64,000 bases of DNA from Eledone cirrhosa. Lineage: Eukaryota. Position numbers and translations under genes: made by a program. The DNA is taken from positions 337,342,001-337,406,000 of the forward strand of contig OZ024740.1 of NCBI GenBank assembly GCA_964016885.1. The letters run 5' to 3'. Positions within the stretch are counted from its first letter, which is position 1. Each line of letters opens with the position of its first letter. The notes under the pieces are model-generated. The model was not told the DNA's origin. It saw only the letters and a program-made list of their open reading frames with translations, and searched no databases. This document shows positions 244 through 62,406 of the stretch, piece after piece.

Positions 244-546
244 AGATATTAAGTAGAATCGAAGTCAGTGCTGCAGCATATGTACAAACTTTATTGGTAT
301 GTTACAATTGTTTCGATATCGAGCAGCTCAGGGTACAATCGAAATGATGGGGTCTGACACTTTTTCAACATCTCGTCAGATATGTGAGTTCACATATAAA
401 CTCACATATCTGACGAGATGTTGAAAAAGAGTCAGATCCCCATCATTTTGATTGTACCCTGAGCTGATCGATATCGAAACAATTGTAACATACCAATAAA
501 GTTTGTACATATGCTGCAGCACTGACTTCGATTCTACTTAATATCT
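244..546. repeat. ~300-bp near-perfect palindrome, PLE pLTR-derived fold-back element with a hammerhead motif in each arm
   Basis: Arms 244-390 and 399-546 differ by about 3 substitutions and 1 indel. Loop CACATATA. CTGACGA 410-416, GAAAC-AATT-GTA 476-487, AATAAA 495-500. Confidence 0.85.
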
Positions 547-603
547 CCCCCTCTCTCTCTCTCTCTCTCTCTCTCTTTCTCTCTCTCTATATATATATAT
601 ATA

Positions 604-1398
604 CTAGCAGCAGTACCCAGCGTTGCCTGGGTAGGTAAAATAATATCTGCTTTGATGAAAAGGTGTTGATCTTAGCGACTGCTTCTCGATGACTCATCTA
701 TGGCCACACACAGGGCATACGGGGGAGGGTGGTGATGACCTCTATCACTGAAAAACGCAGGTGACTTACGAAGGAGCATGCTGGGGGAGGGAGTTTCGAA
801 TTTTAACGAAATCGGTTGAAAAATGTGGGAGCTAGAGCCAAAAAGGCGGAAATTTGAGCGAAAAGGTGGTATTTTCGAATATTTAAGCGGCTGCCACGCC
901 GTTCCTGAACAAAAAATCCGAAATGTAAAGCCACTTTAAGACGTGAAATAATCAGATCTAGCACAGTGTAACATTTGAAGAAAGTAGGTTGATTAATGTG
1001 GGAGCTAGATTAATGTGGGAAATTTGAGTCTAAAAGTGGTACTTTTGAATATTTAAGCGGCTGCCACATCATCCCTGAACAACAAATATAAAATATAAAG
1101 CCATTACAGGATGTGCAATGATAAATTCTATTTTGCTTTAAAATTTGAACGAAATCGGTGGCAAAATGTGGGAACTGGAGCAAAAAAACTTATTTTTCGA
1201 TACCTAAAAAAAGGTGACACCCTATCGATTTTTATCTGCAGAATGACGCCGGAAAATAAAAAAAAACGATCCCTGATATATAGAAAACACTCCCCGATGA
1301 CTAATCTATGAGTCTGTAAAGTTTCATGAAAATCGGTAATATAGGTAATACACAGACACACAGACATACACACATACTTAATTTTATATATATACAGA
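604..1398 (-). mobile_element. Non-autonomous Helitron
   Basis: On the - strand: 5' TC(TGTATATATATAAAA), 3' hairpin TACCCAG-GCAACG-CTGGGTA 6 nt before terminal CTAG, inserted between A and T. Internal repeated blocks at ~810-900, ~1000-1070 and ~1150-1185. Confidence 0.8.
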
Positions 1399-1399
1399 T

Positions 1400-1625
1400 A
1401 TCATCATCATCATCGTTTAACTAACGTCCTCTTTCCATGATAGCATGGGTTAGACGGGTTGTCCTATTTGAGGCAGGTTGGGTCAGGTGATCATGTCCTG
1501 CTCATATAGAAATGTTTCTGGCTATATTTCTCCAGCTGGATGCCCTTCCTAATGCCAACCACATTTACAGTGTGTGCTGGGCGCTTTTTGTCATGACTCC
1601 TACACACCACTTTACAGTGTGGGCA
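1400..1625 (-). mobile_element. Short RTE-3'UTR-derived element
   Basis: (ATC)n tail, CATGGGTTAGAC and CTGGATGCCCTTCCTAA motifs shared with the RTE 3'UTR. Confidence 0.7.
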
Positions 1626-1729
1626 TATATATATATATACATATATATATATATATATATATATATATATATATATATATATATATATATATATATATAT
1701 ATATATATATATATAAATATATATATATA

Positions 1730-1895
1730 TGTAGTCATGGTTGTGTAATTAAGAAATTCTCTTTAGAACAATGTAATTTCATATCCATTTCCACTATTTA
1801 GCACTTTGGGCAAGTGTCTTCTACTACATCTCCAAACCATCTAATTCCTTGGGTGTGAATTTGGTAGATGGAAACTGTAAGGAAGCCTTTCATAT
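1730..1895 (+). mobile_element. Degenerate CORE-type SINE
   Basis: CTTTGGGCAAGTGTCTT CORE-like motif followed by GTGAATTTGGTAGATGGAAACTG. Related copy at 37618-37758. Confidence 0.6.
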
Positions 1896-59505: not shown

Positions 59506-59633
59506 TATATATACATATATGTATATACATATATATATTTATGTATATGTATATATATTTATGTATTTATGTATGTATGTATGTATATATATATATATAT
59601 ATATATATATATATATATATATATATATATATA

Positions 59634-60040
59634 TAACGAAGGAAATGTGGTAAGGAACCAGTTGGACCATAACGCACCAAAGTACTCAATACTTAGGGTA
59701 GTAGAGTGGGTAATAGGAACGAGTCGGACCCCGACGGCTGAGCTCAAGCCATTTCGACGGCTAATTCTGGACTAAAAAAAAAAAAAAAAAAAAAAGCACC
59801 ACTGGTGTGACTTTTGGGGTGCCAGTAATGGCTGTCGGTATGACACCTGGTTTAGTGTCAGCGGCGGCCACTCTGAGTCCCTTAATTGTGGTCGTCTCGA
59901 GTGCTGGTGTAGGTGACCCTGGCTCTGGAGACTATGTAGCCAGGTGAGCTATCCCACAATCTTCTTTTTTTTTTTTTTTTAGTCCAGAATTAGCCGTCGA
60001 AACGGCTTGAGCTCAGCCGTCGGGGTCCTACTCGTTCCTA
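59634..60040 (-). mobile_element. Fold-back half-hammerhead element carrying a 169-nt cargo between A22 and T16
   Basis: Reverse-complement match to 14816-15008, with the loop replaced by a copy of 57268-57436 in reverse orientation. Confidence 0.85.
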
Positions 60041-60293
60041 TATATATATACTTATACACGCAGACTATTTACTGACATCTACACACTTTTCTGAACTGCA
60101 ACTTCATCTCTGCACACTGTTGCACCTGCTGCATATCCCTCTCTCCTGCATCACATACTGAATACAAGGTAAACAACAGACACCTCACCCACCACCCTTA
60201 TTGGATATCGAGACAATTAATAATATATCATGTTTTCTATAAACACTGATTTTTCTCAAAACATACCTCTCAGTCTTCAGTAGTCTTATACTG

Positions 60294-61790
60294 TTGGTGG
60301 TGGTGGTGGTGGTGGTGACTGGGGTGGTATTGGCAGTGGTGGTGGTGACTGGGGTGTTAGTGGTAACGGTGGTGGTGGCAGTGGTTGTGGTGCTGGCAGT
60401 GGTGGTAGTGACTGTGGTGGTGGTGGTGCTGGCAGTGGTGGTGGTGACTGGGGTGTTAGTGGTAGTGGTGGTGGTGGCAGTGGTGGTGGTGGTGGTGGTG
60501 GTGCTGGCAGTGGTGGTGGTGACTGTGGTGGTGGTGGTGGTGGTGCTGGCAGTGGTGGTGGTGACTGGGGTGTTAGTGGTAGTGGTGGCAGTGGTGGTGG
60601 TGACTGTGGTGGTAGTGGTGATCATGGTGATGGCGTAGTAGTGGTGGTGGTGGTGCTTGTAGTGTTGGTGCTGGCAGTGGTGATGGTGGCAGTGGTGGTG
60701 GTGACTGAGGTAGTAGCAGTGGTGGTGGTGGTGGTGGTGCTTGTGGCAGTGGTGGTGATGGTGGTGTTGGTGATGGTAGTGCTGGTGGAGGTGTAATATT
60801 GGTGGTGGTGCTGGTTGAGGTGGTGGTGATGCTGGTGGTGGTTGTTGTTGTGGTGGTGGTGCTAGTGTTCCAATGGGGGATGGTGGTTGTGGTTGTTGTT
60901 GTGGTGGTGGTAGTGGTGGTAGTGGTGGTTGTGGTGATGGTTGTGGTGGTGGTGGTGGTAGTGGTGGTTGTGGTGGTTGTGGTGGTGGTAGTGGTGGTAG
61001 TGGTTATTGTGGTGATGGTTGTGGTGGTGGTGGTGGTAGTGGTGGTTGTGGTGGTTGTGGTGGTGGTAGTGGTGACTGTGGTGATGGTTGTGGTGGTGGT
61101 GGTGGTAGTGGTGGTTGTTGTTGTGGTGGTGGTGGTGGTGGTGGTAGTGGTGGTTGTTGTTGTGGTGGTGGTGGTAGTGGTGGTAGTGGTGGTTGTGGTG
61201 ATGGTTGTGGTGGTGGTAGTGGTGGTTGTTGTTGTGGTGGTTGTAGTGGTGGTAGTGGTGGTTGTGGTGATGGTTGTGGTGGTGGTGGTGGTAGTGGTAG
61301 TGGTGGTGGTGGTGGTGGTAGTGGTGGTTGTGGTGATGGTGGTGGTGTTGGTGGTAGTGGTGGTTGTGGTGATGGTTGTGGTGATGGTTGTAGTGGTGGT
61401 GATTGTGGTGTTGGTGGTGGTGGTAGTGGTGGTAGTGGTGGTTGTGGTGGTGGTGGTGGTTGTGGTGTTCGTGGTTCTTGTTGTGGTGGTGATGGTTGTG
61501 GTTGTTGTTGTTGTTGTGGTTGTGGTGGTGGTGGTGGTGCTAGTGCTCCAATGGGGGATGGTGGTTGTGGTGTTGGTGGTGGTGGTAGTGGTGGTTGTGA
61601 TGATGGTTGTGGTGGTGGTAGTGGTGGTGCTAGTGCTCCAATGGGGGGGGGGGGTAGTGGTTGTGGTGTTGGTTGTTGGTTGTTGTTGTTGTTATGGTAG
61701 TGATGGTTGTTGTTGTTGTTGTGGTGGTAGTGGTGGTGGTAGTGGTGGTTGTGGTGATGGTTGTGGTTGTGGTGGTGGTAGTGATAGTGC
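60294..61790. repeat. Degenerate (GGT/GTT/AGT)n trinucleotide low-complexity array
   Basis: Direct reading. Poly-V/G/P/T ORFs in several frames. Confidence 0.9.
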
Positions 61791-62361
61791 TGGCTGTTGA
61801 CATTCTTCACCGCCACTGTCTCAGTCTTCTCACACTCTCTCCTCCCCCTCCTCCTCCTCTCCTTTCGTTTTATACTCTCTCCTCCACCCTTTGCATCTCA
61901 TATCACTCCCCCTCTCTTTCACATTATCTCCTTTTCACACTCTCCTCTCACCTCACCCCTTTCTTCCGTTTTTTCAATAAAGTTATAAGAGAAATAGAAT
62001 TATATTTGAATTTCGAAACTTATTTAGGTTGTCTGTATGGCATATCCGTGTGTTTGTATGTGTCTGTGTGTGTATGAGTGTATGCATTTGTGTATGTGTA
62101 TGTATGTGTGTGTATATGTGTATGTGAGTGCGACTGTGTATGCATGTGTGTGTTTGTATGGCATGTTGTGTGTGTATATAGATATTTTTATATATATATT
62201 GTTATACTTTGGGAGGGTCATGTTGCCAATAAGAAACACACGCACCAGTTGCTTTCACTTCAATTTATTATATATTTATAAATTTATAAATTTACAAATT
62301 TACAAACTTATAAATTTCTGGTTGGTTGGTTGGTTCCACAACCAGATAGTTGTTTATATAT

Positions 62362-62406
62362 AGTCATAGTCCTTTCGTCACACACTCTGTGACCTCTTCA
62401 GTGACT
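62362..62406 (-). ncRNA. Minimal type I hammerhead with canonical core
   Basis: On the - strand: AGTCA-CTGAAGA-G-GTCACA-GAGTG-TGTGAC-GAAA-GGAC-TA-TGACT. Degenerate paralogue at 15801-15845. Confidence 0.75.

Follow-up and report, generated by a model that had tools for sequence, protein, structure and literature searches.

Penelope-like elements (PLEs) of the canonical endonuclease-bearing (EN+) type are known to carry an inverted 5'-truncated copy of themselves and a tail of 30–40 bp (PMC8557442, PMC3846280), and the few solo pseudo-long terminal repeats (pLTRs) have been ascribed to recombination or deletion (PMC3846280). Transcription of PLEs begins within the upstream pLTR (PMC2377424), and a purified PLE protein is able to nick both strands of its target and to extend them, with two internal start sites of its reverse transcriptase (RT) defining the tail and no need for hammerhead cleavage (PMC11167929). 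PLE hammerheads with a palindromic stem III and inverted pairs 100–700 bp apart have already been described, the U3–A8 core being a natural variant (PMC4209133). Here we analyse a window of 64,000 nucleotides of the 3.0-Gb genome of Eledone cirrhosa (GCA_964016885.1, contig OZ024740.1, positions 337,342,001–337,406,000, forward strand, numbered below from its first letter), an AT-rich stretch with abundant microsatellites and remnants of long interspersed nuclear elements, in which a first-pass annotation had reported about nine type I hammerhead motifs, several of them in short non-coding fold-back units bounded by (TA)n.

These units are like those of canonical EN+ PLEs in the tail-less inverted copy beside the 5' end, the optional tail, the pLTR hammerhead, the (TA)n target and the partial tandems, but the tails are longer than 30–40 bp and most copies consist of a pLTR only, with a sharp 5' limit (the wall). 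We consider it probable that the short fold-backs are pLTR copies of PLEs bearing an open reading frame (ORF), made by RT run-off at the predicted mRNA start from a (TA)n target. The RT of the element would prime from both cut strands of the target and begin copying its own mRNA at two fixed sites close to the 5' end; two short cDNAs would end at the cap, that is, at the predicted transcription start corresponding to the wall, and would join head to head via short microhomology supplied in part by ribozyme palindromes. The hammerhead would be present in the units because it is located in the pLTR. We hold with little more than even confidence the wider proposal that one mRNA, two cDNAs and run-off at the cap mass-produce fold-back solo pLTRs that map the starts, and that the same footprint on a retrozyme is direct evidence that PLEs mobilise animal retrozymes.

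Ends of the fold-back copies and their parents

Repeat families are named F1–F10, labels coined in this analysis, and family positions are counted relative to G12 of the GAAA box. The F1 sample comprised the first 90 copies in genome order of 15,755 exact matches to a 36-letter tail pattern; for the others we took 50 F2 copies from 60 exact matches, the first 30 of 5,732 for F4, the first 30 of 14,236 for F5 (the pattern sample) and 50 of 370 for F6. Copies of F1, F5 and F7 on loci fetched for other families made up incidental samples.

For F1, F3, F4, F5 and F7 there are longer copies in which an ORF follows in collinear order, which bears out the PLE pLTR origin suggested by the first-pass annotation. 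In F1, about 1.1 kb of non-coding sequence is followed by an RT/GIY-YIG ORF, and locus L263 holds a complete unit (pLTR–ORF–pLTR, period 3,533 bp) with a single ORF of 701 aa from the first ATG, whose RT and C-terminal GIY-YIG domains were read from motifs; a Pfam scan returned no family for this ORF or for the GIY-YIG pieces of the window. F3 has ORF-bearing relatives, in some of which the ORF start comes after the tail. F4 is collinear with a GIY-YIG sequence at L283 and L294, which we take to be Neptune-like from its cysteine pattern; F5 with a Hydra-type GIY-YIG in the window and at L303, L316 and L321 (tblastn); and F7 with a GIY-YIG ORF at L024. In F2, an old family, a collinear ORF was found in none of 30 longer copies, and the copies carry a PLE-like pyrimidine-rich upstream region. 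The short fold-backs are thus probably not separate non-autonomous families, with the reservation that F2 lacks a shown ORF parent; nor did the short units of F1 and F4 look like retrozymes, as tandem monomers were not found and ORF parents exist.

Each family has two fixed 3' ends. In F1, 89 of the 90 forward copies end at +114 to +119; inverted arms are present in 68 copies, 55 of these arms ending at +42, and a TA flank is found in 86/90. At L263 the +119 site is internal to the 5' region, and at L263 and L056 both sites also recur in the 5'-terminal part of the downstream unit. The 5' ends are equally far from random: 82/90 lie at or after −24 and 48/90 within the 14 nt from −24 to −11, where the stop rate per base is 0.13 vs. 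about 0.009 downstream. The incidental F1 sample agrees, with 54/57 ends at or after −22.

Walls were taken at −22 (F1), −103 (F2) and −62 (F4). F2 has 26 of its 50 5' ends at −105 to −90, about 30 nt upstream of stem I, with the two 3' ends near +67 and +195; among 18 long copies that could be scored, 11 have a TATA box 31 nt ahead of the wall. F4 has 18/30 at −65 to −52, which places its wall about 38 nt from stem I on the upstream side; of eight long copies, six show TATAAA 30 nt ahead of the wall and five show CCAAT at −80 to −84. In F1, what we take to be a TATA-like box precedes an Inr-like A at −22 by 25–27 nt. The distance from wall to ribozyme differs between families, as do the tail lengths (77 nt in F1, ~128 in F2, ~62 in F4 and ~86 in F5). 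Where the wall is clear, it tracks the predicted core promoter and not the ribozyme.

The position of the F1 wall in hammerhead loop II, together with a pile-up of F5 ends at stem I in the incidental sample (16/55 at −30 to −19) and certain F1 junctions centred on ribozyme palindromes, could also be explained by a structural RT stop (the ribozyme fold or a bound protein) on the 3' pLTR of full-length RNA, the units then being ordinary 5'-truncated copies. Because the wall lies in loop II, a stall may be what sets it in F1, and in F1 alone; in F2 and F4 the RT crosses the whole ribozyme and halts 30–40 nt on, at TATA+30, and in F6 the ribozyme is traversed without any pile-up. We regard this explanation as unlikely. 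The same position of the wall is the reason why the whole ribozyme is present in only 5 of 90 F1 copies.

An RNA start in loop II would leave the 5' pLTR of F1 with only the 3' half of the ribozyme, and it is a matter of speculation that this half could pair in trans with a 5' half from the 3' pLTR.

The sites at which the F1 copies end at 3' are 20 and 97 nt past the hammerhead cleavage site, and 73/90 copies read through the latter, contrary to the earlier suggestion that the hammerhead is the priming site. Cleavage was also rejected as the source of the main F1 5' end, only 5/90 ends falling at +22 to +24. The breakpoints do lie inside the hammerhead in F1, as had been annotated; in F2 and F4 the wall is 30–40 nt upstream.

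The F1 junctions are individual: among 64 there are 57 different ones, one recurring three times and five twice. The three commonest allele classes are present in long and short copies alike, and no combination of a fixed junction with private variants was found; since the junctions are individual and the alleles are common to long copies, a separate master copy is not seen. A model of non-autonomous fold-backs that descend from dedicated master copies and prime or fold at the hammerhead would fit the very high exact-match counts of F1, F5 and F4 and the few recurrent junctions; such a scheme holds for F6 and might for F2, which has no ORF parent shown. For the short units in general we find it more doubtful still than an RT stop, given the distinct junctions, the shared allele classes, the scarcity of whole hammerheads in F1 and the priming sites downstream of the cleavage site.

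Arm and forward copy of F1 carry the same allele in 49 of 52 cases at each of two polymorphic sites, compared with about 42% expected from random pairing, as two cDNAs of one template would. An apparent discordance that pointed to two templates disappeared in the unbiased sample and was an artefact of ranking by query. In 21 of 64 copies the arm exceeds the forward copy on the 5' side by more than 5 nt, and in those it was therefore not copied from forward cDNA. Microhomology at 43 junctions averages 1.7 nt vs. 0.6 nt after permutation (p ~2e-4), consistent with joining of two cDNA ends. Least probable of all is snap-back, in which a single cDNA primes on itself and copies itself into the arm (discussed in PMC3846280): it predicts the shared alleles and the palindromes at junctions, and in 43/64 copies the arm does not clearly go beyond the forward copy, but the arms of the other 21 hold sequence missing from the forward copy, and long copies without arms end at +42 too, so that +42 is an independent start site.

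Several observations weigh against run-off at an RNA start. The F5 pattern sample is without a wall (12/30 5' ends beyond −90 and 2/30 within −30 to 0), and none was seen among 45 incidental matches of F7. The TATA-like box of F1 is nearer than 30 nt, the usual spacing, and one subfamily has it in imperfect form. A comparison of an F1 stretch with sequencing runs listed no RNA run that contains it. Allele agreement between the arms could equally result from arm conversion. Sampling of F1, F4 and F5 reached 41, 24 and 18 Mb, respectively, from the start of one contig, the F2 copies sampled include the yardstick itself and one duplicated pair, and the use of blastn with individual natural copies as the reference leaves a margin of a few bases on every end. 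Contigs from three runs of one sample over 14500–15010 gave many copies and joints and no start site.

Overall, the first-pass observation is confirmed in part and its interpretation supported in part. Mobilisation by PLE RT and endonuclease is supported, by inference. Simple truncation at PLE 3' ends, which had been named as one outcome that would speak against the annotation, describes half of the picture: the mapping of the units to PLE ends agrees with it, the non-random ends do not. The proposed non-autonomous, retrozyme-like families are represented by F6 and probably not by the short fold-backs.

Hammerheads and elements in the window

The elements and their hammerheads are as follows.

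113–544, + strand: F2 fold-back; inverted arm with ~128-nt tail 113–390 (−), tail-less forward copy 396–544; hammerhead 404–493 (+) and its mirror 385–297 (−), long loop II of ~45 nt, stem I broken
12972–13200, + strand: fold-back ~70% similar to F1; only the 3' half of the hammerhead
14161–14802, + strand: F3, 3' region and pLTR of a Hydra-type PLE, 5'-truncated; hammerhead 14725–14771 (+) with U4C, common to most relatives
14815–15006, + strand: F1 fold-back; arm 14815–14869 (−), forward copy 14866–15006 with 77-nt tail; only the 3' half of the hammerhead
15744–16096, − strand: decayed fold-back, F7-related; decayed hammerhead remnant 15845–15801 (−)
39208–41026, − strand: F9, Hydra-type PLE remnant; ORF pieces 41026–40029, 3' region; hammerhead at the end, 39371–39263 (−), long loop II of ~75 nt
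46198–46592, + strand: F6, putative retrozyme insertion; arm ~46198–46371, forward partial monomer 46370–46592; hammerhead 46424–46467 (+), G12A in the window copy
50324–50529, + strand: F4, tailed solo pLTR that begins a few bases downstream of the 5' wall of F4; hammerhead 50356–50392 (+), clean, U3–A8 core variant, palindromic stem III
54934–56778, − strand: F5, Hydra-type PLE remnant; GIY-YIG piece 56778–56138, 3' region, hammerhead and tail; hammerhead 55093–55045 (−) with U4A, common to relatives
57443–59506, + strand: F8, PLE remnant; GIY-YIG-like ORF pieces 57443–57900; ends in minimal hammerhead 59383–59416 (+), stem I of only 2 bp
59636–60041, − strand: F1 fold-back; forward copy 59776–59636, arm 59978–60041, captured 168 bp 59796–59963; only the 3' half of the hammerhead
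62182–62461, − strand: F7, 280-bp PLE 3' end; intact hammerhead 62406–62362 (−), clean, standard core

All nine motif sites lie in or beside the type I hammerhead fold of a repeated family, those at 410 and 39262 not being minimal on account of their long loop II. Damage is found in most window copies, and only those at 62406 (−) and 50356 (+) are clean. At six of the nine sites an AATAAA occurs no more than 70 nt further on, in keeping with the claim that most motifs are so followed. The annotation overlooked the F1 fold-backs at 14815–15006 and 59636–60041 and their relative at 12972–13200.

The motif count exceeds that in dinucleotide-shuffled sequence, as it should if the motifs are not chance. 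A first descriptor scan gave nine matches of score ≥8 vs. at most three in 12 local dinucleotide shuffles, and five in the reversed window used as a control. A second scan gave seven, compared with a mean of 0.73 and a maximum of two in 30 shuffles; three of the seven are outside the annotated motifs and possibly due to chance. This excess is modest, and conservation across copies is the stronger evidence: the type I core and three stems are satisfied at the family level in F1, F2, F4, F6 and F7. Folding z-scores of the motif stretches are unremarkable (−1.5 to +0.3; 11 stretches, one left out), and in an Rfam scan of the window at E ≤ 5 the hammerhead is absent from the 150 of 158 matches listed. 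On the strength of the conserved folds we take the motifs as real, with self-cleavage predicted, and as located mostly in the end repeats of several PLEs.

For five of the nine motifs, either the window copy or a longer copy continues straight into coding sequence of an RT/GIY-YIG PLE, and two further motifs are at the ends of in-window remnants or their relatives. The three said to sit at the ends of GIY-YIG PLE remnants do so: 39262 and 55044 by tblastn and 59381 by its ORF, which we presume from its motif to encode GIY-YIG. The motif at 14725, placed by the annotation in a unit of 150–400 bp, instead ends a PLE 3' region of at least 640 bp.

Some F1 junctions contain additional sequence. 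The 168 bp at 59796–59963 are a 94.6% inverted copy of 57270–57436, which lies 2.4 kb off beside the F8 remnant, and the insert is placed between A/T tracts; it was likely captured from the nearby sequence, by templated copying, when the ends were joined. Extended A or T tracts occur at F1 junctions at L127 and L152 and in the window at 59776–59795 and 59964–59977; among the sampled armed F1 copies two have such junctions, which suggests untemplated or slipped additions at cDNA ends. Near 27.01 Mb (L184/L185) there is a short F1 tandem with a period of 257 bp, in which a copy from −21 passes the tail into the ORF start and restarts at −21; a jump between templates at the end of the RNA may account for this.

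At L024, L185 and L075, GCGCATGCGC and AAGATGGCG motifs, presumably NRF1-like and YY1-like, are found 90–135 nt upstream of the F7 hammerhead, and the F7 copies of the window and of L192 begin in this motif region. More large hammerhead fold-backs, from PLE-like families beyond the nine motifs, are present at L422:1580–2060 and relatives and upstream at L019.

The window also contains RT remnants of elements without long terminal repeats (non-LTR) at 5329–7800, 8895–10258, 17445–18440, 23412–29755, 49142–49719 and 51515–53218 (Pfam RVT_1 for those scanned), with a large inverted pair at 23021–30086. A dispersed repeat of ~140 bp, resembling a short interspersed nuclear element (SINE), has about 14 window copies, often beside (TA)n (16314–16455, 17048–17187, 26943–27084, 35112–35250, 49774–49914 and others), and a degenerate (TGG)n array of 1.5 kb occupies 60295–61783.

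The F6 family

F6 is organised as a head-to-tail, ORF-less monomer of 340 bp with one type I hammerhead each. At L406 the 340-bp period is present with two hammerheads, and the longest stop-free frame is 91 codons. Sixteen of 30 copies have an intact core, and pairing, judged only on the 7-bp inner stem I and on stems II and III, is good in all three, with few compensatory changes. A PLE ORF adjoining F6 was found in none of the 30 plus 50 loci examined; PLE ORFs near F6 at L422, L464, L459 and L436 are separate insertions and not parents. By its structure F6 appears to be a separate non-LTR retrozyme family, truly non-autonomous.

The ends of F6 resemble those of the PLE units. The 3' ends, taken modulo 340 (n = 50), fall at 207–212 (19 copies), 224–230 (7) and 247–263 (22), and inverted arms were called in 26/50. 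The 5' ends are spread, with no wall; 14/50 run into the previous monomer, and copies pass their own ribozyme without a pile-up of ends. The largest copy found has about 1.6 monomers, and the copies are dispersed. F6 is likely carried by the same PLE machinery, which would act on circular or multimeric RNA; the lack of a wall would then be explained, because such a template is circular or multimeric. A point to the contrary is that blastn found no similarity between F6 and the PLE ends of this analysis.

Before the F6 ribozyme we observed an octamer (14/22 copies), a TCACC box (14/22) and a TATA box (15/22), which we take to be a promoter of the small nuclear RNA (snRNA) type. A promoter of this type is reportedly present in newt satellite 2, for which a literature look-up gave no confirmation.

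Relation to described systems

Compared with the Hydra clade (PMC8557442, section 11), the F1 protein at L263 has RWR (for RWK), DKT and a CxCx5C linker, no CCHH, and CxxC and CxH near the end, together with a hammerhead and (TA)n insertion; the F1 unit is 3.5 kb vs. generally <3 kb, and its hammerhead has a U3–A8 core and a long loop II. On these protein motifs we provisionally assign F1 to the Hydra-type PLEs.

Poseidon PAc of Anolis in vitro (PMC11167929) shows the same two internal start sites bounding the tail, extension of both target strands and an uncleaved RNA template, as we propose here; the portion of that study available to us describes neither an accumulation of 5' ends in genomic copies nor fold-backs made of the pLTR alone.

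F6 is like the non-LTR retrozymes (PMC7229834; bioRxiv 10.64898/2026.07.22.740005) in its ORF-less tandem monomer with a hammerhead and differs from them in its copies of at most ~1.6 monomers, their dispersion and the PLE-type fixed 3' ends and arms. The link between retrozymes and PLEs has been argued in those sources, as far as their available text goes, from co-occurrence and pLTR similarity, not from footprints.

The proposed run-off also has a parallel outside PLEs. Minus-strand strong-stop DNA of LTR retroelements arises from RT that is primed close to the 5' end of the RNA and copies up to the cap. Here, priming would be from target DNA and the product would be an integrated dead-end copy, so the comparison is an analogy only. 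No strong-stop or run-off account of pLTR-only PLE copies was found in the literature, and no account of a promoter-linked 5' wall or of a PLE footprint on a retrozyme, with supplements and older reviews lying outside the search.

Taken together, our results are mostly known PLE biology plus two testable additions, the promoter-linked wall and the PLE footprint on F6. The former bears on how PLE inverted ends and tails are formed, described as an open question (PMC8557442), and the latter on the mobilisation of retrozymes by PLEs, advanced as a hypothesis (PMC7229834). Tens of thousands of young copies yield single-base predictions of two RT starts, an RNA start and one template. In annotation, fold-back units of this kind are to be filed as PLE ends and not as miniature inverted-repeat transposable elements or new SINEs, and genome-wide hammerhead counts would take in many half or dead motifs.

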